Below are positions 1 through 42,090 of a stretch of 42,090 nucleotides of DNA, piece after piece. Position numbers and translations under genes: made by a program. Position 1 is the first letter of the stretch, and each line of letters starts with the position of its first letter. Source of the stretch: a virus; the IMG/VR virus record IMGVR_UViG_3300018080_000056, one strand, 5' to 3'. Below the pieces are notes generated by a model. The model did no database searches and was not told where the DNA came from. It worked only from the letters and a program-made list of their open reading frames with translations.

Positions 1-123
1 GCTGCCGCTGCCCTCGCCGCCGCTGCCTTGTGGCTGCTGAGGGTCGGGGCTGCCTGTGTTAATTGTCATCCATGGAAAGATAGCATCGTCTGGCATCTCT
101 GCAATCATCTGCTCTGCTTTCCC
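1..123. repeat. Terminal overlap copy 1: identical to 41968-42090. This is circular closure of the contig; unique genome length is 41,967 bp.
   Basis: Direct comparison of the first and last lines of the window. The identity reaches both window edges and lies inside one continuous minus-strand reading frame. Confidence 0.95.
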
Positions 124-858
124 CCCTGGCTTCAAGTTGGTCATTACAGCCTGCCCTGGCTTGTCTTCTTCTCCCTTTTCATTCACGCCGCCGAACCCCA
201 GAGACAGAGCCTTGTCCATCCATTCTTTATTGTGGTATCCGTTGCGAGTCGGCTTTCCCTGTTCATGCTGCCATTGATGGGTCATCTCGTGGATTAGTAT
301 ATGCATCAACTTGACTATATCCTCACCGTCCATGTGGTTGGCATTGATAGCTATCTCGTGAATTTTGCTGCCCTTTTCATCGTGCCACTTTTCAGCCGAG
401 AAGTACCCGCCTATGATGGATGAATTGCGGGAGATGCAAAGCATGGGTCTGGAAAGAGCCCCATCGAATAGTTTGTCATTAAAAAAATCAAACGCTTTAG
501 AGTATGCTTCGCTCAATTCTATGTTCGGCTTCCCGCTGCCAGTCCCGCCAGTGCCGCCGCCCTTTTCTTCCCAGTCCTCTGCTTTTACAAGGCTGCCAGG
601 ATGAAAAAACCACCCAGTGTCACCTGGCAGGGTGTCCTTATCGGGCACGCAATCACTCCCTCTGTGCAATGCCAGGCTCCCATGCTTTTTTTTCATCTCC
701 CTTATGTTCTCTGCAAAGTCCACGAGAACGGATGGGCTGCCACTCGATGCGAAGCCTGCCACTCTGCCAGTCCATCCCTCTAAGTGCTTTATGCCCTCGC
801 CCTTTACAATTCTTACCTTGTCACCATGTTTGAATTCTCTCATTTTTTCCTCCCTCAT
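1..858 (-). CDS. SprT-like zinc metalloprotease, N-terminal 281-286 codons. The gene wraps the contig junction and terminates at 41830 (326-331 aa in total).
   Basis: Manual minus-strand translation. AGGGAGGAAAAAATG occurs twice, giving ATG at 858 and at 843. The N-terminus MREFKHGDKVRIVKGEG..GWTGRV is KOW/SH3-like. The reverse complement of 241-300 gives ILIHEMTHQWQHEQGKPTRNGYHNKEW, a SprT-type zincin HExxH. The frame runs off base 1 in phase with ORF 41830..42075. Confidence 0.75.
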   Translation of the reverse strand, partial: MREEKMREFKHGDKVRIVKGEGIKHLEGWTGRVAGFASSGSPSVLVDFAENIREMKKKHGSLALHRGSDCVPDKDTLPGDTGWFFHPGSLVKAEDWEEKGGGTGGTGSGKPNIELSEAYSKAFDFFNDKLFDGALSRPMLCISRNSSIIGGYFSAEKWHDEKGSKIHEIAINANHMDGEDIVKLMHILIHEMTHQWQHEQGKPTRNGYHNKEWMDKALSLGFGGVNEKGEEDKPGQAVMTNLKPGGKAEQMIAEMPDDAIFPWMTINTGSPDPQQPQGSGGEGSGS

Positions 859-870
859 TTTTTCCTCCCT
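841..870 (-). repeat. Perfect tandem duplication of a 15-bp unit (minus sense AGGGAGGAAAAAATG) carrying SD plus ATG. It gives two in-frame starts for the SprT-like gene.
   Basis: The plus strand reads cattttttcctccct twice (841-855 and 856-870). A partial third copy, tattttttcc, follows at 871-880. Confidence 0.9.
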
Positions 871-1628
871 TATTTTTTCCAGGGAGCCACTTCCCTGGAT
901 ATTCTTGACGAGTCTATCACAATGACCTCGTCATCCTCGAATTCGCCGCCGAGGTATGTTGTCTCGGCATGCCCATTGCCTGCATCTTTCGTCCCGATTA
1001 GAAAGTCTGCTATCGCATTCGCCAAGCAATTCGATGCTTTGTTTGTTTTCAGGGCGCCCCAGATTCCTGTGAATATCGGGTCTTTATAGTCCTTAATTGT
1101 AATGTACAATACAAGGGGATTCCTTTTCTCTGGAATGCCAAAAGCTATGACTGCTATGACTCGGCATGGGCGCCCCTCGGCTTCAGCTTCAGCCACGATG
1201 CGATATATTTTATCGTGGCGCTCTTTCATCTTGCTTCCCTCCCGCTCGTTCCAGGGGATAATGGCATCCATGACGATTGTAATAGCAGGCTTATAAGACT
1301 CGACCTTTATCCACTCGTCAAAAGGCTTGTCATCTCCCTCTATATATCGCTCCAGAATCAACTCGCCGCCGTCTGATTTTGTGGGGACGACCTCATAATC
1401 TTTCCTAAAGGTATCCTCATAGGCGTCTGCCAGTCCATCGGGAGCGGCATGCTTTCCCATCTCGCTCTGGAATTCATCGAACACAGCCCTATTCGGGCTG
1501 CCGTCCTTATATGCGGTCTGTTTTGTATCGCCCTGGAGAATATGCTCAAACAATTCGAGTCCGTAAAGATGCGCCTCGTCTGGTCTTTCCTCTATAAATT
1601 CTTTAGGTGTTAACATTTTTTCCTCCAT
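870..1628 (-). CDS. Hypothetical 252-aa protein, possibly a vWA-like (CobT-like) partner of the adjacent AAA+ ATPase with a degenerate MIDAS motif.
   Basis: ORF track. GGAGGAAAAAATG suggests the real start is at 1616 (MLTPKEF). Alternating beta-alpha-beta pattern (AITIVMDAI / KIYRIVAEAEAEG / RVIAVIAFG / LVLYITIKDY / DEVIVIDSS), but DxSxS is replaced by DAIIP. Tightly packed between the AAA+ and SprT genes. Confidence 0.6.
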   Translation of the reverse strand: MEEKMLTPKEFIEERPDEAHLYGLELFEHILQGDTKQTAYKDGSPNRAVFDEFQSEMGKHAAPDGLADAYEDTFRKDYEVVPTKSDGGELILERYIEGDDKPFDEWIKVESYKPAITIVMDAIIPWNEREGSKMKERHDKIYRIVAEAEAEGRPCRVIAVIAFGIPEKRNPLVLYITIKDYKDPIFTGIWGALKTNKASNCLANAIADFLIGTKDAGNGHAETTYLGGEFEDDEVIVIDSSRISREVAPWKK

Positions 1629-1644
1629 GTTCGGAGGGGCTCCC

Positions 1645-2862
1645 TCAGAGCCCCACCTTGCTGCGCTCGCCCTTGCTCAGGCTGCTGAGAAAAGTATATT
1701 CGAATGCTTCTTCGTTTTTGAGTCCGCATTTATAAACCTTGATGCAGTTTATCAGCCGCCTAGTCGAGGGCGAAAAGGCAATGTTATTTTGCCTGACCGC
1801 ATCCCTCAGGGTCTTTAAGGACTTGAGGAAATAGTCGCCTGCAGGCTTCTCAATTCCAGAATTCTCGATGAGTTTTTTCTCGACCTTTTCATCGTATCCC
1901 ATATTGACAGAGACAAAGCGGTCGAGTAGTGAATCATCGGCTCTTTTGGCGCCAGTATATTGCTTATCGAATTGACGCCCTGAGGTATTAGCAGCGGCGC
2001 AAATTTTGCAATCATCGTGTACTTTTATCGTGCCCTTGGGAGTCTCAATCGCCCTGATATTTTGCTCCGTTATAGGATTGAGTCCTAAATTAACGTCAGG
2101 GTCGGCGCCGAGTATCTCGTCAATAAACACGAGCCCTGGCTTCTGAATTGCTTTCAACAATTCTCCCTCTACGAATTCACTATGACCGTTTGTGATTTTC
2201 ACGCTCCCAAAAACTTGGGAATACCTCATCCCGCCGCTCATCGAAAAGGTGTAAAAGGGAATATCTAGGACAGCAGCGACCTCTTCGAATAGCCTGGACT
2301 TTCCACAGCCTGCATCTCCAGTTAAGAAAACTTGCACGCCGCCCTTTACCATTGCAACGATTTTGTCAAAAATATCAGGCTTTATATAGCCCGTACTTTT
2401 TGTTTCGTATTCTGGTATTTTTGAAGCGTCCTTTATAGCCTGTTCCACAAGTCCCCTTATCTCCTCGACGGTCTTCTGATTTAGAATTGAGCCCAGTCCT
2501 GCCAGGGTATCCTTTAATTTTGCCCTGGCGCCTGCCGCTGTTTCCTCGACCTCGGCAGCTTCGGGCTCGTCCTCAGCCTTGTCCTCCCTGTTTTTGACTC
2601 CCTGTTTAATTTTCTCGGCTGTTTCCTTTTCAGGGATAGCTTCGCTGTCGCTGTCATCCTCGAGCCTGAAAGAGGGGATATAACCCTGAATCTTGTCTGC
2701 CGCTGCCTTGCGATAGCCCTTATCAATAAGGTCTTCCAGTTGATTAGCAGCCTCCAGGCTGAGCGTGCCGTCCTTAGCTAGCTTTGCCCAGTCTGCATTC
2801 TCAGTCCCATGCTTCACGCAGAAGCCCCATATTTTTTTAGCCTGTTTCCATGATGCATTCAT
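1645..2862 (-). CDS. AAA+ ATPase of MoxR/CobS (AAA_5) type with an about 170-aa acidic N-terminal extension.
   Basis: Walker A LTGDAGCGKS, Walker B LVFIDEI, sensor-1 AAANT, arginine region SLLDRF, sensor-2-like SPSTRRL. SD GGGAGGAAAATTAAGATG. Confidence 0.85.
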   Translation of the reverse strand: MNASWKQAKKIWGFCVKHGTENADWAKLAKDGTLSLEAANQLEDLIDKGYRKAAADKIQGYIPSFRLEDDSDSEAIPEKETAEKIKQGVKNREDKAEDEPEAAEVEETAAGARAKLKDTLAGLGSILNQKTVEEIRGLVEQAIKDASKIPEYETKSTGYIKPDIFDKIVAMVKGGVQVFLTGDAGCGKSRLFEEVAAVLDIPFYTFSMSGGMRYSQVFGSVKITNGHSEFVEGELLKAIQKPGLVFIDEILGADPDVNLGLNPITEQNIRAIETPKGTIKVHDDCKICAAANTSGRQFDKQYTGAKRADDSLLDRFVSVNMGYDEKVEKKLIENSGIEKPAGDYFLKSLKTLRDAVRQNNIAFSPSTRRLINCIKVYKCGLKNEEAFEYTFLSSLSKGERSKVGL

Positions 2863-2888
2863 CTTAATTTTCCTCCCTGTTAATTGCT

Positions 2889-2917
2889 ATGGTATTATCC
2901 TTTTTAGTTAATACCAT
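2889..2917 (-). promoter_or_regulatory. Perfect 9-bp inverted repeat (ATGGTATTA, 11-nt gap, TAATACCAT) between the 68-aa gene and the AAA+ gene. It contains the GGTATTAACTA element shared with 34302-34322 and 38723-38743.
   Basis: Read directly from the sequence. It sits 27 nt upstream of the AAA+ start codon, just before ...TTAACAGGGAGG. Confidence 0.6.
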
Positions 2918-2919
2918 AA

Positions 2920-3126
2920 TTAAAATTTTTTGAGGACGTAAGCCATTGCCAAAAATGCAATGTACTCTTGTACTTTTTCCTCAATAAAGCCTCTTTCCCT
3001 GGCTTTTTCCATTGCCCATGACTCGGCTTCCCTGGCACTCATCGAAGCCCAGTCCTCCCTGGCAAGGGCTCGACCTATGCCATAGGCGGCGCCCTTGATT
3101 GCCGTTGGTGAATAACATGCTTTCAT
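2920..3126 (-). CDS. Hypothetical 68-aa protein, first gene of the accessory operon.
   Basis: ORF track. SD (minus sense) AACGGAGGATGAGATG. Located downstream of the promoter at 3175-3202. Confidence 0.6.
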   Translation of the reverse strand: MKACYSPTAIKGAAYGIGRALAREDWASMSAREAESWAMEKARERGFIEEKVQEYIAFLAMAYVLKKF

Positions 3127-3174
3127 CTCATCCTCCGTTAATTAAATTTGATAATATCTAATATCATCAATATT

Positions 3175-3202
3175 ATTTTAACATAATATAATATCTAGTC
3201 AA
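3175..3202 (-). promoter_or_regulatory. Sigma70-like promoter for the minus-strand accessory operon (-35 TTGACT, 16-nt spacer, -10 TAAAAT).
   Basis: The reverse complement of 3175-3202 reads TTGACTagatattatattatgtTAAAAT. Confidence 0.55.
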
Positions 3203-3254: not shown

Positions 3255-3364
3255 GGACAACAACCTGGACAACAAATATTCTCTGCATTCCCATTATTAT
3301 CTATAACTTAAGCGCTCTCTTTTCATCGAAGCGGACAACAAAACGGACAACAAACGGACAACAA
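3255..3364 (+). repeat. Iteron cluster 1: five copies of GGACAACAA (3255, 3267, 3333, 3345, 3356) spaced 11-12 bp within each group. Candidate replication origin or organizer-binding array.
   Basis: Exact 9-mers counted in the sequence. The same 9-mer is clustered inside the replisome-organizer gene at 35637-35758 in the opposite orientation. Confidence 0.75.
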
Positions 3365-3740
3365 ACGTAGTACTTTGAATAAATTTAATAATGTTATAAA
3401 CATTGTTTCTTAAGAAAATAAGAAAGACAAACGTACATACCTATTATTATTATTTATAACTATTTACAGAATAAAATTAATAGTGAATATAATAAAATAG
3501 AGTTTTGAATATAAATATATTAAACGTAGAAAGTATTAACTATGTTCTTTACACTATTAATCATCCCTAGTTAATATTAATAATAAGAAAACATAAGATA
3601 TTAATAGATATATTTAGTAAATATCTTAATTTTTTACTTAATTATACTTAAATATACTATAAATATCTATGTAAAGTATTTATTTTAAATAACTTAGGTA
3701 TGTTTGAGTCGTATAACATGTATTATGTTAACTTTTTTTT
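3365..3740. other. Extremely AT-rich noncoding tract, a possible DNA-unwinding element. It contains AAACGTA three times and a TAACAT-N5-ATGTTA inverted repeat.
   Basis: No ORF of 60 aa or more on either strand. Visual base composition. AAACGTA is seen near 3364, 3429 and 3523, and the inverted repeat near 3713-3729. Confidence 0.6.
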
Positions 3741-3783: not shown

Positions 3784-3824
3784 GGCACCCCCCATGGGAA
3801 CTTGCGGCACCCCCCACACCCCCC
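3784..3824. repeat. GC island with three C6 tracts (G6 on the minus strand) and a duplicated GGCACCCCCCA motif.
   Basis: C6 at 3788-3793, 3810-3815 and 3819-3824. GGCACCCCCCA at 3784-3794 and 3806-3816. It lies at the edge of the AT-rich region. Confidence 0.8.
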
Positions 3825-4987: not shown

Positions 4988-5062
4988 TGGTAGCGGGCAT
5001 GGGAATCGAACCCATCTTTGCGGCGTATGAGACCGCCGAGACCGCCTTGCCTCCCGCCCGCA
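4988..5062 (-). tRNA. 75-nt tRNA with anticodon CAU (Met or Ile2-type) and an encoded CCA end.
   Basis: Hand-folded cloverleaf. Acceptor UGCGGGC/GCCCGCU (U1:U72 mismatch). D stem GAGG/UCUC. Anticodon stem GCGGU/GCCGC with loop CUCAUAC. 4-nt variable loop. T arm AUGGG-UUCGAUU-CCCAU. Discriminator A plus CCA. Confidence 0.75.
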
Positions 5063-35226: not shown

Positions 35227-36003
35227 TTAGTCTCCTTTCCTAGCCCATCTCTCGGCTATTTCCATGTTAGACAGGCGCTTCTTTTTATACTGACCCTCCA
35301 GTACCTTGATGTAGTTAGAGGGCTTGAGAATCCAATCGAAGGTTATGACCCACCCCTCTTTGTTGTCGCCGAGGAGAAACGCCTGCTCTGCCGCAGCACT
35401 CAAGACCTCATCGAGGTTGAAGCCATTGTCCTTCATTCGTGCCCTCAACTGTCTCTCCCTCGTGGAGCCTGAGACAATACCCCTCACCTTTGGAAGGCTG
35501 TGTTCCTCAGCAAAGGCGTTCCATTTTTCGAGAGTCAACATAATTATTTCTTTATTCTTTTCCTTCTTTTCTTTCTTTTCTTCTTCTTTCTTCTCTTCTT
35601 TTTTAAGAGTAAGAGAAGTATTTACATAGGTACCGCTTGTTGTCCGTTTGTTGTCCATTTGCTGTCCATTTTGTTGTCCACCCTCCTGATATTTTTCCCA
35701 GTAAGTTATTGATACTATTGAGTATTTATTGGTAGATTTGATGTCCACTTTGTTGTCCATTTTTAGAATGCTAAGGTATCTTATTAGTGTCGTGGGTCTG
35801 ATATTTAAGAACCCGCTAGCGTCTGGTCTCTTGAAAACAAACTGACCTGGCTTTAGGCGAACCACTTGATTCCCTATCATTTCCTCTCTCTCCTTGTAGG
35901 CTGCGCTGCATAGGCACCATATCCACACCTTGAGCAGTCCCTCGTTTCTAAACATCGGGTTATCAATTATCTTTCTCCACAGCTTTATGTATCCTGGTCT
36001 CAT
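35227..36003 (-). CDS. Replisome organizer / replication initiator (lambda O / DnaD-like winged-helix N-terminus) carrying internal iterons (258 aa).
   Basis: N-terminus YIKLWRKIIDNPMFRNEGLLKVWIWCL...GQFVF...TLIRYLSILK is typical of phage replication-protein N-domains. Low-complexity middle (EEKKEEEKKEKKEK). The iteron array lies inside the gene. Confidence 0.65.
   Translation of the reverse strand: MRPGYIKLWRKIIDNPMFRNEGLLKVWIWCLCSAAYKEREEMIGNQVVRLKPGQFVFKRPDASGFLNIRPTTLIRYLSILKMDNKVDIKSTNKYSIVSITYWEKYQEGGQQNGQQMDNKRTTSGTYVNTSLTLKKEEKKEEEKKEKKEKNKEIIMLTLEKWNAFAEEHSLPKVRGIVSGSTRERQLRARMKDNGFNLDEVLSAAAEQAFLLGDNKEGWVITFDWILKPSNYIKVLEGQYKKKRLSNMEIAERWARKGD
35637..35758 (-). repeat. Iteron cluster 2, inside the organizer gene: four exact GGACAACAA (minus sense) plus two one-mismatch variants, at 11-12 bp spacing.
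   Basis: Plus-strand TTGTTGTCC at 35637, 35648, 35671 and 35750. Variants TTGCTGTCC at 35659 and TTGATGTCC at 35738. Confidence 0.8.
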
Positions 36004-36705: not shown

Positions 36706-37547
36706 TTCTTTTTCCTCCTTGCCAGGCTCCTCTCTTTGCGGAGCCACCATATATCCACGAAGCGGCAGAATTCCTCAAAGAAACTATCAAGGACTTGACG
36801 CTCTATGATGTGCCACTCCATGTCGCCAGTATATTTATCTAGCCTCAGCATCGCTCCGCAATCTACGGTCTGACCGCTTCTTTCTTCCCACGCATGAACG
36901 TAGCTTGCCAGTTGCAGCTTGTGGTCGTGGTACAATCCGTTGGCAGTCTTGAAGTCTATGACGAACAGGTACCTGCTTTTTTTTGGCAGCGCTTTAACGC
37001 CAAGGTGTTCGGGAATACTCAGGTTCGCAACCAAATCAAGAGTGCCTGCGTAACGATGCTTTTCTGAGTAAACCCTTTCCTCTATCCCGACTGGCTCGAC
37101 ACAATACTCCCGAAGCCATTGATAGAATTTCTCGACTTGCTCTTTAAACTCAGGGGGCACAGACTCCATCCTCCCTGTCCTGAAGTATTCCTCGATGAGC
37201 CCATGCACTATAGTCCCCTTCTCGGCACCCTCTTTCGCAGCCTCTTCGGGTCTTTCCTTTGCCTTCTTCATCATCAGGGGGACGTCCAGACATTCGAGGA
37301 AATCCTTAGTCATCATGCCCTTTCCTGTAATGTGCATTTCATAGATGAGCTGGCTAACAAAGCTCTCCACCGCCGTCCGTGCATACCAGGAGTGAAGCCC
37401 TATCTTCTCGTTGATATTCAAGACAGTCGTTGACGAGGGCAGCTTAACGCCGAGGTCATCAACGAAATACTCCCTACCTTCTTTACTTTCAACTCTTCTT
37501 ATTCCCACTTTTTTTCTCCTTTCCTTTCTTTGATTTAACGAAAGCAT
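36702..37547 (-). CDS. PD-(D/E)XK (RecB/Cas4-like) exonuclease, probable partner of the annealase (281 aa; an alternative GTG start at 37508).
   Basis: RYAGTLDLVA ... FVIDFKT ... KLQLASYVHAW gives the D...D/ExK...QxxxY pattern. Confidence 0.65.
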   Translation of the reverse strand: MLSLNQRKERRKKVGIRRVESKEGREYFVDDLGVKLPSSTTVLNINEKIGLHSWYARTAVESFVSQLIYEMHITGKGMMTKDFLECLDVPLMMKKAKERPEEAAKEGAEKGTIVHGLIEEYFRTGRMESVPPEFKEQVEKFYQWLREYCVEPVGIEERVYSEKHRYAGTLDLVANLSIPEHLGVKALPKKSRYLFVIDFKTANGLYHDHKLQLASYVHAWEERSGQTVDCGAMLRLDKYTGDMEWHIIERQVLDSFFEEFCRFVDIWWLRKERSLARRKKK

Positions 37548-38568
37548 CCAGGGCTGTCTGCATGTTCTGAGCCAGGTACCACAAGTCTTCCTCGTTTCCC
37601 TCTGTCAGGGACAGGTTTCCGTATTGCTTGCCGATAAACCTTTTCCCCATCTTGCCTTGAACACCGTACAGATATTTTTTGAATTCCGTGTAGTCCAGAT
37701 TGTTCATCTTCTCGACCGTTACCTTTACCATCTGGACAATATCTTTCACGGCATCAGACACCTCTGGTTTTTTCTTATCGCCAGACGCAATCTTGCTCTG
37801 GTCTATGCCAGGGAGGGGCGAGTCGTCCTCCCCTTCTTCTGGAATATAAGGAGCGAAGGGAGCGTCCCCCTCGGTATTATCCTCATCAGCTTTTTCCCCG
37901 TCCTCCTTTCGTTTGGATTTGCTAGTATGCCCCTTGGGTTCATCTCCCTTCTTTCTCCATAGATACTTACCTTTCTTGCCTCTTCGAGCGTCCCAGGCAT
38001 TGTTGTCCCAGCATTTCTCGGCATACTTTTCTTTCCATGCCTTGATAAAACTGGGCTTCCACAGCTCTAAGCCTATGCCTATCCCCTTGCAAAGGCGCAT
38101 GAGTGCGTTACTCTTTGCCCCCTCGCAGGCGTCACTCCACGACATGGCAGGATTATTCTCGTGATACTCCTGCTCGCCGATGGCATAGCCGTATGGCTTT
38201 CCATCCACGAATAAATAGAATCCCCACATGAGAGAGTTACCACTTGGGCTCATCTCAGGCTTGGGTGTGGCGGGAATGATTGCCCACTTACCACCGAAGG
38301 CATCCCTAAGCCTCGTAACATACTCCATCCATGGTAGGTATATGAGCCCATCAGGTCTTATCTCGACAATCTCGTCCTCGATGGGGGCGAACAGGATTTC
38401 CTTCTGCTCGCCTGTAAACTCCACGGTTGCAGCCACGCCAAGCATGTCAATGACCTTATCGGATACAGTCTCAGACCTGGACACAGCCATTGGAGCCGCT
38501 GAGGGCTGCTCCGACTGGAGCCCTCCGCCCTCGTGCTTTACGATTGATGCTTCCTTACCTTCTGACAT
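37489..38568 (-). CDS. Rad52/Sak-like single-strand annealing protein (359 aa) with a long basic/acidic C-terminal extension.
   Basis: EIRPDGLIYLPWMEYVTRLRDAFGGKWA and ACEGAKSNALMRLCKGIGIGLELW match Rad52-family signatures as I recall them. Confidence 0.6.
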   Translation of the reverse strand: MSEGKEASIVKHEGGGLQSEQPSAAPMAVSRSETVSDKVIDMLGVAATVEFTGEQKEILFAPIEDEIVEIRPDGLIYLPWMEYVTRLRDAFGGKWAIIPATPKPEMSPSGNSLMWGFYLFVDGKPYGYAIGEQEYHENNPAMSWSDACEGAKSNALMRLCKGIGIGLELWKPSFIKAWKEKYAEKCWDNNAWDARRGKKGKYLWRKKGDEPKGHTSKSKRKEDGEKADEDNTEGDAPFAPYIPEEGEDDSPLPGIDQSKIASGDKKKPEVSDAVKDIVQMVKVTVEKMNNLDYTEFKKYLYGVQGKMGKRFIGKQYGNLSLTEGNEEDLWYLAQNMQTALDAFVKSKKGKEKKSGNKKS

Positions 38569-39515: not shown

Positions 39516-39544
39516 ACTATAAGCGATAATGCCTCAGTTGTCAA
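39516..39544 (-). promoter_or_regulatory. Early (PR-like) promoter: -35 TTGACA, 17-nt spacer, -10 TATAGT.
   Basis: The reverse complement reads ctaTTGACAactgaggcattatcgctTATAGTtattaacg. Confidence 0.65.
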
Positions 39545-39584
39545 TAGTTTTTGAAAAAAGTTTTAATTTTTTTATAGGCTTTTC

Positions 39585-39612
39585 TTGACATTGATGAGTT
39601 GTGTGTTATAGT
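39585..39612 (+). promoter_or_regulatory. Repressor-side promoter: -35 TTGACA, 16-nt spacer, extended -10 TGtTATAGT.
   Basis: cTTGACAttgatgagttgtgTGtTATAGT read directly, 36 nt upstream of the CI-like ATG. Confidence 0.65.
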
Positions 39613-39955: not shown

Positions 39956-41017
39956 ATGGGGGTTTACCTTCGAGGTAACCGATACCATTTCAAAAAGATG
40001 GTAGAGGGCAAGGTTTATTACAAGCCGCTGCGCATACGCAAAGGACAGGAATCCCTTCTGTCTGCCAGGGTGAAGCAAGTCGAGGAGGAAATAATAGCAC
40101 AGCACTACGGCATACCATACAAGGGGAGTGACAGCACCACCTTTCAGGACTATTCCCTCACGTACCTCAGCCAGAAAAAGTATAAGAAAACATGGGAGCG
40201 TGACAAGCAGAGACTTGCCATAATGGCAGAGATAGTGGGCGACCCACCGCTGCGCTCGATGGGCAAGCCAGATATTCAGCGGCTTGAGAAAGCGTTATTC
40301 GCCAGGGGGCTGAAGCCCTCGACAGTCAATAGGTACTTCGAGATACTAAACAATATGTTCAACACAGCCATCGAGGACGAGGTGCTGGATAAGAATCCAT
40401 GCAGGTTTTACAAGAGGTACACCGAGGACGGCAGCCGCAGAGCCTTGAGCCAGGATGAGTTGAGAAAAATACTGAGCGCAGCCAAGGAAATTCAAGAGAG
40501 TCCAAGGTCAAACATTCAGTCCCTCATATATGACATTATTATTCTCGCCCTATCCACGGGCATGAGGCTATCCGAGATGCTCAATCTAAAAAGAATCCAC
40601 GTTGACCTGGAAAGAAACCGCATCACTCTACCGATTTCTCATACAAAGTACAAGAGAAGAGGTGGCGGAAGGCAACGGGTGAAGGTTATTGTAATGAACA
40701 CTACAGCTATGCGCATCTTGAGTAAGCACTTAGCCAGGTCTGAGTATGTGCTTCCCGTTGGGTGGCGGGACGCAAGCACGGTGTTCCATGTGGTCAGGAA
40801 GATTCGCAAGATGACGGGCATCGAGGACTTCACGTTCCACCAGTTGAGACATACAGTTGCTACCTTTCTCACATCAAAGGTTGACATTGCCACGAGCCGC
40901 ATAATCCTGGGGCACTCTGACATACAAACCACGCTTAAATACTCCCATCCCTCCAGTCTGGAAGAGGGTGTTGCAAAATTAGATACACTTGTGGCAGACC
41001 TCCAGGGTAATGCGTAG
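39956..41017 (+). CDS. int: Tyrosine recombinase / phage integrase (353 aa).
   Basis: TGMRLSEMLNL (Arg I), HQLRHTVATFL (HxxR) and ILGHSDIQTTLKYSH (catalytic Tyr). Confidence 0.9.
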   Translation: MGVYLRGNRYHFKKMVEGKVYYKPLRIRKGQESLLSARVKQVEEEIIAQHYGIPYKGSDSTTFQDYSLTYLSQKKYKKTWERDKQRLAIMAEIVGDPPLRSMGKPDIQRLEKALFARGLKPSTVNRYFEILNNMFNTAIEDEVLDKNPCRFYKRYTEDGSRRALSQDELRKILSAAKEIQESPRSNIQSLIYDIIILALSTGMRLSEMLNLKRIHVDLERNRITLPISHTKYKRRGGGRQRVKVIVMNTTAMRILSKHLARSEYVLPVGWRDASTVFHVVRKIRKMTGIEDFTFHQLRHTVATFLTSKVDIATSRIILGHSDIQTTLKYSHPSSLEEGVAKLDTLVADLQGNA

Positions 41018-41019
41018 TT

Positions 41020-41043
41020 GTTCGAGTCCCCCCTTCGGCACCA
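41020..41043 (+). mobile_element. attP core candidate: a 24-nt sequence identical in form to the 3' end of a tRNA gene (T-loop, T-stem 3' strand, acceptor 3' strand, ACCA).
   Basis: GTTCGAGTCCCCCCTTCGGCACCA starts 3 nt after the int stop. The upstream bases cannot form the T-stem, so it is a fragment and not a gene. Confidence 0.7.
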
Positions 41044-41161: not shown

Positions 41162-41347
41162 TTATTGTTTCTTTATACTTGGCACAGATAATTCTTCAAC
41201 GCCCTCGTCTGATACCATCGTCATAAACCTTACGCTCTGGAAGTGGGATAATGTAAAGCATCCTCCGAATTCTTCGTCCCACAACATGCAGGCTTCCTCG
41301 ATACAGCAAGTCCTGAGCCATGGGCATATCTTTTTTTGTCCCGCCAT
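41162..41347 (-). CDS. Cys-rich 61-aa protein with its own promoter, next to attP (moron-like).
   Basis: ORF track. SD ACGGAGGTAAGGTTTAAATG. Promoter at 41384-41412. Confidence 0.5.
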   Translation of the reverse strand: MAGQKKICPWLRTCCIEEACMLWDEEFGGCFTLSHFQSVRFMTMVSDEGVEELSVPSIKKQ

Positions 41348-41433: not shown

Positions 41434-41754
41434 TTAGGCGGGGAGAGTCACCCCTCTCTTTCCCTCTTTCTCACATTGATTGCACCCCTGTTTTCTAAGG
41501 GGGCACAGCCTATAATCTATCGGGTTAATCCTGACAACCTTGAAGTTTTCCATAGAGTCATCCTCTATAACGTAAAGGGCGTCGCATGCCATAGCCCTGC
41601 CAGCCTTGCAGGTTGCCCAGTTATTATAAAATTTAACCCTGTCATATCCAGCGACCTCCAGCAGAGGTATCTGTAGGTCTGGCTTATAGTACCCCCTGCC
41701 CTTATCGTCCCACCACTCCCACTCTATATCCCTTGTAATATCTATTGCTTTCAT
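41434..41754 (-). CDS. Hypothetical protein (106 aa, Trp/Cys-containing).
   Basis: ORF track. SD CAAGGAGGATGCAATG. Confidence 0.55.
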   Translation of the reverse strand: MKAIDITRDIEWEWWDDKGRGYYKPDLQIPLLEVAGYDRVKFYNNWATCKAGRAMACDALYVIEDDSMENFKVVRINPIDYRLCPLRKQGCNQCEKEGKRGVTLPA

Positions 41755-41829: not shown

Positions 41830-42090
41830 TTACACCTGCTCGATGAGTGCTTTGTCACAGTCCAGGCATAGAATCTTGACGCCATGCTTTGCCCAGACAT
41901 TCAATCCGCATACTGGGCAGGTGTACTTTGTCCTTTTCCCAGACCTGGGAGCCCTGGCTTTACTGCTGCTGCCGCTGCCCTCGCCGCCGCTGCCTTGTGG
42001 CTGCTGAGGGTCGGGGCTGCCTGTGTTAATTGTCATCCATGGAAAGATAGCATCGTCTGGCATCTCTGCAATCATCTGCTCTGCTTTCCC
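41830..42090 (-). CDS. SprT-like zinc metalloprotease, C-terminal part. It continues from base 1 across the junction. Gly/Ser/Pro linker plus a CxxC...CxxC zinc ribbon.
   Basis: ORF 41830..42075 is in frame with the minus-strand frame leaving base 1 (42075 corresponds to 108, and 843-108 is divisible by 3). KYTCPVCGLNVWAKHGVKILCLDCD. Confidence 0.75.
   Translation of the reverse strand, partial: GKAEQMIAEMPDDAIFPWMTINTGSPDPQQPQGSGGEGSGSSSKARAPRSGKRTKYTCPVCGLNVWAKHGVKILCLDCDKALIEQV
41968..42090. repeat. Terminal overlap copy 2, identical to 1-123.
   Basis: Same comparison as for copy 1. Confidence 0.95.

Follow-up and report, generated by a model that had tools for sequence, protein, structure and literature searches.

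The 42,090-nucleotide viral contig IMGVR_UViG_3300018080_000056 (hereafter the window, meaning the whole stretch of DNA that was analysed), from a temperate phage, carries on its minus strand three adjacent genes that recur together, in the same order, in about 40 phage genomes that are otherwise unrelated and have differing flanks. They encode a 405-amino-acid (aa) ATPase of the MoxR/CobS class of AAA+ proteins, a 252-aa protein that is a divergent member of the DUF7192 family with a predicted von Willebrand factor A (vWA)-like fold, and a predicted zinc metalloprotease of the SprT/Spartan family. The ATPase and the 252-aa protein very probably form a functional motor-adaptor pair of the MoxR-vWA type. 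A first-pass annotation, made from the letters of the window alone, had singled out this operon, and the present analysis follows it up.

Results

Three genes recur together in different loci

The analysis drew on 52 loci with relatives of the 252-aa protein, fetched from assemblies, viral contigs and metagenomes, 39 of them distinct. Whether the three families keep company elsewhere had been left by the first-pass annotation to a neighbourhood search, and their order turned out to be conserved. The ATPase gene stands immediately upstream of the adaptor gene in all 31 loci with enough sequence, and the SprT gene lies immediately downstream of the adaptor in 29 of 35 informative loci, 12 loci showing a 4-bp overlap at the adaptor/SprT junction. 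When every open reading frame (ORF) of the window was queried against about 50 loci, only the ATPase, the adaptor and the SprT-like protease recurred; the single-stranded DNA-binding protein (SSB), the nuclease, the terminase and the remaining genes of the window are common to at most three loci. Because the genes flanking the cassette vary between loci, the three-gene unit, as judged from gene order, is a mobile cassette and not inherited backbone synteny. Closely similar cassettes were also seen on four human-gut metagenome contigs of 95-310 kb (L039, L052, L053 and L056), which could be chromosomal prophages or very large phages.

The ATPase retains all catalytic motifs

The 405-aa protein matches Pfam AAA_5 at 2.3e-19 (70.2 bits; curated cut-off 22) and phrog_249, a family labelled 'porphyrin biosynthesis', at 3e-44. 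Its best relatives among PDB sequences are NorQ (6.5e-12) and CbbQ (9e-11), with CobS weaker at 2.5e-5. Walker B (D248/E249), sensor-1 (N292), R315 and sensor-2 (T367/R368) are invariant in 31 of 31 homologues, Walker A (G182-S189) is near-invariant among them, and the motif residues align to NorQ. All catalytic motifs are intact, and the AAA_5-type ATPase of the first-pass annotation stands. The candidate C-terminal lid (CbbQ_C) scores 18.7 bits (E 0.0021), below its cut-off of 20.6, and the alignment with NorQ extends to residue 402. At the other end, an N-terminal domain of about 65-70 aa is conserved in at least six loci and is followed by an acidic linker; the acidic N-terminal extension that had been read from the sequence is indeed present, with 18 D/E in the charged stretch of residues 67-125.

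The 252-aa protein is a divergent DUF7192 with a predicted vWA-like fold

Direct searches with the 252-aa protein gave no match in Pfam, PHROG, PADLOC or PDB sequences, and none to the Pfam model of DUF7192 (PF23822) itself at E up to 1. Neither tblastn of the protein against 50,697 phage records nor blastn with the operon DNA gave a match, and phmmer and the family profile found nothing meaningful among PDB sequences. A word-indexed protein search recovered 9 relatives only and understated the family; an exhaustive profile search recovered about 100 clusters of ~250-aa proteins, with a sharp cut-off. For pattern scans of genome and metagenome collections, an alignment of 94 sequences was too diverse; the 9-sequence alignment worked for metagenomes, and with it no relative of the family was found in 185,579 representative bacterial and archaeal genomes.

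The larger family leads to DUF7192. PF23822 is matched by 12 of 94 family members (best E 2.6e-5), and the most distant member, P0108, is a bona fide DUF7192 protein (4e-34). In hhalign, the family aligns to a 4-sequence DUF7192 alignment with 96.3% probability (E 1.9e-9); the same comparison with gp221 of phage K alone is insignificant (1.3% probability). An initial AlphaFold2 model built from 9 sequences (predicted local distance difference test score, pLDDT, 75.8; weak fold matches) was replaced by one built from the deep 94-sequence alignment, with pLDDT 93.5 and a predicted template-modelling (TM) score of 0.87. [quoted passage not shown] Against BFVD, the best matches are phage DUF7192 proteins (E 4e-10, TM 0.55) and then CobT-like/vWFA phage proteins. 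The vWA assignment is based on loose geometric similarity together with this consistent ranking of matches, and no CobT_C or VWA Pfam match was found for the 252-aa protein or for the top families of its 94 relatives.

Within the predicted MIDAS, D121 is kept in 37 of 40 sequences, and both serine positions of the DxSxS motif are mostly A/M and P. The model also contains a long beta-hairpin (residues 78-110), whose family-invariant G88/R94 motif falls on G..VDVGR, a motif conserved in DUF7192, when the two are aligned. Taken together, profile comparison and the predicted structure show a divergent DUF7192 protein with a predicted vWA-like fold and a lost MIDAS. The first-pass annotation had described it as a degenerate vWA-like protein with a lost MIDAS; that description agrees with the NorD vWA matches and the absent serines, and divergent DUF7192 is the better name.

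The third gene encodes a Spartan-family protease

The protease ORF runs from 858 to 1 and continues from 41967 to 41830 across the contig junction; it encodes 331 aa, or 326 aa from an in-frame ATG five codons on. The protein matches Pfam SprT-like (PF10263) at 7.6e-7 (29.4 bits, above the curated cut-off of 25.6), as do 24 of 24 aligned relatives (best E 1.4e-14). All 24 homologues share H190, E191, H194, Q197 and H209. Run against the PDB, the family profile matches the human Spartan protease domain best (8e-5), in an alignment that spans HEMxH and the third histidine, H209 being aligned with the histidine of 'EGHGPEF' in Spartan. Judged by these residues, the protein is a predicted zinc protease of the Spartan family whose active site is intact. 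The basic patch and the zinc ribbon (SGKRxKYTCPxCG...C..C), preceded by a low-complexity linker, are kept in most homologues. The SprT HEMTH core and the C-terminal zinc ribbon of the first-pass annotation are therefore conserved; its KOW/SH3-like N-terminus found no support, since the 110-aa N-terminal extension has no Pfam match at E up to 0.1 and is unique to the protease of the window, being absent from 23 relatives and from every locus fetched. The link of SprT proteins to DNA is family knowledge from SPRTN (PMC7534798).

The linker between core and ribbon varies greatly in length and consists of G/Q/E/S repeats, such as a GQ dipeptide run in L021 (examples at L021:2975-3694, L015:5744-6583 and L030:5725-6675). 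Its variability suggests a flexible tether.

Operon architecture in a circular genome

The first and last 123 bases of the window are identical (41968-42090 = 1-123), which shows a circularly closed assembly of a phage genome with a unit length of 41,967 bp. The minus-strand block extends from about 3200 down across base 1 to 41162 (Table 1). ORFs of 68, 405 and 252 aa lie where the first-pass annotation had placed them, and its 326-331-aa ORF does cross the junction, by way of the 123-bp overlap; the tight packing that it described is borne out by spacers of 57, 16 and 11 nt among the first four genes. Two further ORFs on the same strand, of 106 and 61 aa (41434-41754 and 41162-41347), had been missed.

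Table 1. Features of the minus-strand block and its surroundings in the window.
Feature	Position	Strand	Basis or remark
Sigma-70-like promoter candidate, TTGACT-16 nt-TG-TAAAAT	3175..3202	-	Pattern scan, 10/12 with extended -10; consensus match only
68-aa leader ORF	2920..3126	-	ORF scan; outside the conserved cassette
405-aa MoxR/CobS-class AAA+ ATPase	1645..2862	-	Pfam AAA_5, phrog_249
252-aa divergent DUF7192, predicted MIDAS-less vWA-like adaptor	870..1628	-	AlphaFold2 model, Foldseek, hhalign
Predicted zinc metalloprotease of the SprT/Spartan family, first 286 of the 331 codons, covering the N-terminal extension, the HEMTH core and the low-complexity linker	1..858	-	
SprT-like protease, final 45 codons and stop (basic patch, CxxC...CxxC zinc ribbon)	41830..41967	-	
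106-aa ORF downstream of the cassette, not conserved with it	41434..41754	-	Same strand
61-aa Cys-rich ORF, own promoter-like site at 41412-41384, not conserved with the cassette	41162..41347	-	
attP core candidate that copies the 3' end of a tRNA (T-loop, acceptor stem, CCA)	41020..41043	+	GTTCGAGTCCCCCCTTCGGCACCA
Tyrosine integrase	39956-41017	+	Pfam Phage_integrase 3e-21
Five TTGTTGTCC iteron-like repeats	3255..3364	-	50-160 bp upstream of the operon promoter

A single promoter had been said to feed the operon. The site exists, at 3202..3175, and a GGAGGA ribosome-binding site lies between it and the 68-aa ORF; promoter-like sites are not enriched in the region (11 observed against 7.9 +/- 2.3 expected), and further minus-strand matches lie inside the block at 41650-41623 and 41412-41384. 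One promoter driving the whole operon is no more than plausible. Neither the 68-aa nor the 106-aa ORF has a family match in Pfam, PHROG or PADLOC; the former has no homologue in about 50 related loci, and homologues of the 106-aa and 61-aa ORFs were likewise not found across the related loci.

The operon and the integrase gene are transcribed convergently. The integrase stop codon lies three bases ahead of GTTCGAGTCCCCCCTTCGGCACCA, whose tRNA identity was read off the sequence, and this tRNA 3'-end sequence right after the stop bears out the location next to the phage attachment site (attP) claimed by the first-pass annotation. The exact 24-mer of the attP core has at least 120 matching stretches in genomes of many bacterial phyla.

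The cassette keeps the company of presumed early genes

The locus L001 shares several backbone genes with the window phage and carries the cassette in the same relative position and on the same strand. There the cassette stands directly upstream of genes homologous to those for the PD-(D/E)XK nuclease, the SSB and the O-like initiator in the window, with no intervening integrase; a 359-aa neighbour resembles the window's Mgm101-like annealing protein by size and position only, not by phmmer. In the window, a block of integrase, cI and cro genes separates elements that adjoin in L001. As L001 has the same elements without an integrase between them, the lysogeny module looks like an inserted piece in the window phage.

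Elsewhere, the cassette is found near the start of a non-structural operon, divergent from the packaging genes, in unrelated phage backgrounds. In the crAss-like phage cr115_1, the ATPase and a ~267-aa neighbour lie between the gene for a Sak4 annealing protein and primase/resolvase genes, with a helicase further upstream of the Sak4 gene, and in cyanophage S-RIM2 a CobS-like gene adjoins clamp and clamp-loader genes. The iteron array next to the operon promoter of the window fits the same setting. The layout of L001, the non-structural operon positions, these replication-gene neighbours and the absence of a PADLOC match together place the cassette, on the evidence of gene neighbourhood, among the early DNA-metabolism or takeover genes of the presumed non-structural set. 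The 701-aa gene beside CobS in the cyanophage has no Pfam match. The partner gene gp61 of cr115_1 (L060:4367-5170) has an in-frame stop under translation table 11, which fits stop-codon recoding.

Repeats and other features near the operon

The 9-mer TTGTTGTCC is repeated every 11-12 bp in just two clusters, 3255-3364 (-) and 35637-35758 (+); at up to one mismatch it has 26 matches window-wide against 9.3 +/- 2.6 expected. The second cluster lies within the gene of a 258-aa lambda-O-like/DnaD-like initiator, as in the lambda origin. The arrays look like origin iterons, and the one near the operon, which has a very AT-rich stretch beside it, may mark a second origin or control of the operon by the initiator. 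About 300 bp at 3400-3700 are extremely AT-rich by eye, within a 2-kb bin with a GC content of 0.40; this candidate DNA-unwinding element sits in a gap of 900 bp that separates the cassette from the tRNA and small ORFs ahead of the packaging genes. The same gap holds a G/C-rich 11-mer, GGCACCCCCCA, repeated 22 bp apart at 3784-3816. Repeats also lie upstream of the ATPase gene in other loci: about eleven tandem ACCAAGG units in a long gap in L017 (L017:2747-2823), and six copies of a 21-nt repeat of the AACTATATAATAGTGT type in L011 (L011:3048-3347). Both are unrelated in sequence to the iterons of the window.

Between the terminase genes and the AT-rich gap stands a tRNA-Met (CAT) gene at 4988-5062 (-). 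At 39516-39612, between cI-like and cro-like helix-turn-helix genes, two 11/12 promoter matches (TTGACA...TATAGT) stand back to back and form a textbook lysis-lysogeny switch. An Mgm101/Rad52-type single-strand annealing protein is encoded at 37489-38568 (-) (Pfam 6.7e-37), followed by the PD-(D/E)XK nuclease and the SSB.

Discussion

A remodel-and-cleave model and its weak points

The solved NorQ-NorD complex offers a template for how the cassette might work, because the closest structures to the adaptor are NorD in the NorQ ring and the closest solved relative of the ATPase is NorQ. In that complex, the AAA+ pore takes up a finger of the vWA domain, whose C-terminus attaches to the post-sensor-1 loop, and the adaptor is twisted as ATP is hydrolysed, which remodels the client (PMC13036017); Kahle et al. 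2026 note the same docking mode for CbbQO and Rea1 (PMC13036017). By analogy, the phage ATPase would form a hexamer on which the DUF7192 adaptor docks as NorD does on NorQ, with the hairpin of residues 78-110 as the finger in the pore and the adaptor C-terminus in contact with the ring. ATP hydrolysis would twist or pull the adaptor and so remodel a client held by its N-terminal helical part, and the SprT-like protease, held on nucleic acid by its basic zinc-ribbon tail, would cut the loosened client. The most likely target would be a host or phage protein bound to DNA that the cassette encounters early in infection, around replication and recombination. This full model, with its DNA-bound client, is our preferred reading, an analogy that we hold tentatively, at somewhat less than an even chance.

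Several observations weigh against it. The vWA likeness of the adaptor is geometrically loose, with TM of about 0.3 to NorD and 0.2-0.3 to solved vWA domains, and the MIDAS, the usual target-binding site of such adaptors, is lost, so that target capture would need another route. Six of the 35 informative loci are without SprT and have no other HExxH gene nearby; the SprT-lacking loci fall in two clades (L013/L016 and L014/L018/L027). SprT is likewise absent beside the ATPase-DUF7192 pair of Staphylococcus phage K, mycobacteriophage Snenia and a Rhizobium phage, and probably beside that of crAss-like cr115_1, and in Gordonia phage Monty the ATPase has a CobT-type vWA partner instead, again without SprT. 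On the other side, related proteins with SprT and zinc ribbon are encoded by themselves in Desulfofustis, Nostoc and two uncultured phages, and standalone SprT is reported in Arthrobacter cluster AZ phages and mycobacteriophages. Since SprT is commonly alone, its coupling to the pair could be merely regulatory or temporal. The trio is accordingly not a single obligate unit: the pair is widespread without SprT and SprT without the pair, and the ATPase and adaptor can presumably work without the protease, which would then be a later addition to an older machine of two parts. The DNA-bound client, finally, is suggested by family analogy and gene neighbourhood.

Competing explanations

The observations just listed would suit two separate functions in mere neighbours, the pair having its own job and SprT, for example, clearing DNA-protein adducts from phage DNA, with early expression as all that brings them together. 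Each unit is found without the other, in 6 of 35 loci for the pair and in the standalone SprT phages for the protease, and no adaptor-protease fusion occurs among the longer family members. Yet the fixed-order adjacency holds in 29 of 35 loci despite unrelated flanks, 4-bp start/stop overlaps are frequent, and a chance neighbour would be expected to be shuffled off in such mosaic genomes. The divergence of SprT also tracks that of the adaptor as closely as the divergence of the ATPase does: compared pair by pair, the three proteins give correlations of r = 0.97-0.98, at identities as low as 23%. Seven near-identical gut loci push the r = 0.97 figure upwards. We regard separate functions as rather unlikely, while giving them serious weight. 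The motor and adaptor might instead seize a host immune or housekeeping protein, not necessarily on DNA, for the protease to destroy. Such a role in counter-defence or host takeover overlaps with the remodel-and-cleave model and differs from it in the target alone. The plasmid protein ArdC, a Spartan-like protease with anti-restriction activity, speaks for it, as does the patchy, mobile distribution over unrelated phages, which is typical of conflict genes. Iyer et al. 2021 suggested host proteins as the targets of SprT-like and ArdC-like metallopeptidases in phages (PMC7824862). The cassette has, however, no likeness to a known defence or anti-defence family in PADLOC, and the basic zinc-ribbon tail and replication-type neighbourhoods point to nucleic-acid-bound substrates, which leaves a target of this kind quite improbable. 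A prophage-expressed moron or defence cargo at the attachment-site end, as proposed by the first-pass annotation, would agree with the adjoining attP, the promoter-like site of its own and the convergence with the integrase gene. This proposal did not survive: the six operon proteins match 0 PADLOC families at E up to 0.01, the GC content of the operon (0.495) matches the backbone, the pattern scan of 185,579 representative genomes detected no family member, and in L001 the cassette occupies the same relative position without any lysogeny module, other cassettes lying in unrelated phage backgrounds. We deem it highly improbable.

Two further readings come from other MoxR-vWA systems. The cassette could encode a virion-assembly chaperone with a processing protease, after the jumbo-phage MoxR-vWA-peptidase proteins, for which proposals of this kind are on record (PMC7824862), and after the archaeal MoxR-vWA system of Acidianus two-tailed virus, described for tail assembly (PMC7159879). 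The cassette does adjoin packaging genes in the window, L001 and L017, though divergently; it is opposite in strand to all structural genes and lies in the non-structural block, and the ATPase stands among replication genes in cr115_1 and cyanophage S-RIM2. The head module of the window phage, which comprises a portal, a probable scaffold and a major head protein, is of the P22 type. Heads of the P22-like type need no maturation protease, and to our knowledge zinc-ribbon-tailed Spartan-type proteases are not known as prohead proteases. We give virion assembly little credence, and for the protease by itself a head-maturation role was rejected on the grounds of the non-structural strand and block, the replication neighbours and the P22-like head. 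The last reading, a viral CobS/CobT cobaltochelatase that boosts host cobalamin synthesis, has on its side the phrog_249 label 'porphyrin biosynthesis', the presence of CobS among the PDB matches, and the proposal by Liu et al. 2021 of a cobalamin role for the cobST clusters of viruses (PMC8651126). Here the partner has neither a CobT_C match nor a MIDAS, NorQ (6.5e-12) and CbbQ are far better matches than CobS (2.5e-5), no CobN was found in the window, the label is a transferred annotation and not a tested function, and a tightly linked DNA-type protease would make no sense for a chelatase; the chance of this reading is close to nil. Identification as a cobaltochelatase gene was rejected for the missing CobT_C and MIDAS, the weak CobS match and the linked protease.

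Relation to known systems

Like the ATPase and adaptor genes of the window, NorQ-NorD, CbbQ-CbbO and CobS-CobT are adjacent gene pairs, and they include the best solved relatives of the ATPase. The hairpin of the window's adaptor could serve as the finger shown for NorD, whereas this adaptor has only 252 aa, lacks a MIDAS and has no Pfam vWA or CobT_C match; the system is phage-encoded, with no metalloenzyme client nearby and with an attached protease gene. Closer parallels are found in the classical phage pairs: gp220-gp221 of phage K, gp134-gp131 of Snenia and the pair of Rhizobium phage RHph_X2_24 have the same phrog_249 ATPase followed by DUF7192, and gp62-gp61 of cr115_1 are probably the same pair. 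Compared with these, the adaptor branch of the window is too divergent for the Pfam threshold, and the SprT link was seen in none of the inspected pairs.

The first-pass annotation could name no described system that adds a protease to such a pair. This was too strong, as Iyer et al. 2021 describe in a jumbo phage a unit that likewise joins a MoxR-class ATPase, a vWA co-chaperone and a zincin metallopeptidase (PMC7824862). Compared by description, the jumbo-phage peptidase is N-terminal and fused to the vWA protein whereas that of the window is a separate gene, and the jumbo-phage system is proposed for virion assembly whereas the context in the window is early and non-structural (PMC7824862). 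SprT-like peptidases in phages are noted separately in the same work (PMC7824862). Standalone phage SprT proteins (phrog_6361; gp46 of Arthrobacter cluster AZ, and the proteins of mycobacteriophage MPC00488 and Nostoc phage Nsp-JY18) have the same domain order, active site and C-terminal zinc ribbon at ~30% identity to the protease of the window. They have no ATPase or adaptor neighbour in Desulfofustis, Nostoc and the two uncultured phages, and the window adds the 110-aa N-terminal extension.

The eukaryotic pairing of SPRTN/Wss1 with p97/Cdc48 shares with the cassette a Spartan-family protease with a nucleic-acid-binding-type tail. In DNA-protein crosslink repair, the Spartan protease works with p97 as a substrate-preparing AAA+ motor (PMC9127365, PMC10308373). 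The motor of the window belongs instead to the MoxR clade, as a presumed single ring with an adaptor finger and not a threading unfoldase; there is no ubiquitin system, and the link to the protease is genetic only, which makes this an analogy of logic and not of homology. With that qualification, the p97/SPRTN analogy is a reasonable hypothesis. Carried to its end, it would make the cassette a viral 'segregase plus protease': the MoxR-class motor, acting through the MIDAS-less vWA-like adaptor, would pry a tightly or covalently bound protein off phage or host DNA, and the Spartan-type protease, itself tethered to DNA, would then degrade that protein. Candidate clients are a nucleoid protein, a defence factor bound to DNA, or an intermediate of replication or recombination. 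We consider this unlikely. If true, it would be the prokaryotic-virus counterpart of p97-SPRTN, built on a different AAA+ clade, and would give a first function to the widespread DUF7192/'CobS-like' phage genes.

In the literature searched, DUF7192 is not mentioned, and no paper connects a SprT-like protease with this ATPase. MoxR-vWA pairs are well known, and the Spartan-linked branch of the ATPase-DUF7192 pair is a new addition to them.

Significance for phage biology

Hundreds of phage genomes, among them relatives of the therapeutic Staphylococcus phage K, Listeria phages and crAss-like gut phages, carry phrog_249 genes under the label 'porphyrin biosynthesis' or 'CobS'. The label looks like a transferred annotation, with no link to tetrapyrrole genes; in phage K (L059, gp220-gp221) and Snenia (L057, gp134-gp131), the 'porphyrin biosynthesis' genes are the AAA+ half of an ATPase-DUF7192 pair. 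The recognition of DUF7192 as a predicted MIDAS-less relative of the NorD/CobT adaptors gives these CobS-like phage genes a mechanistic frame, and the branch of the pair that is locked to a Spartan-type protease offers a concrete route to the client protein. If the protease truly acts with the motor, this would be the first prokaryotic or viral case of an AAA+ motor working with a Spartan-family protease, and would probably disclose an unrecognised step in phage DNA metabolism or in the takeover of the host.

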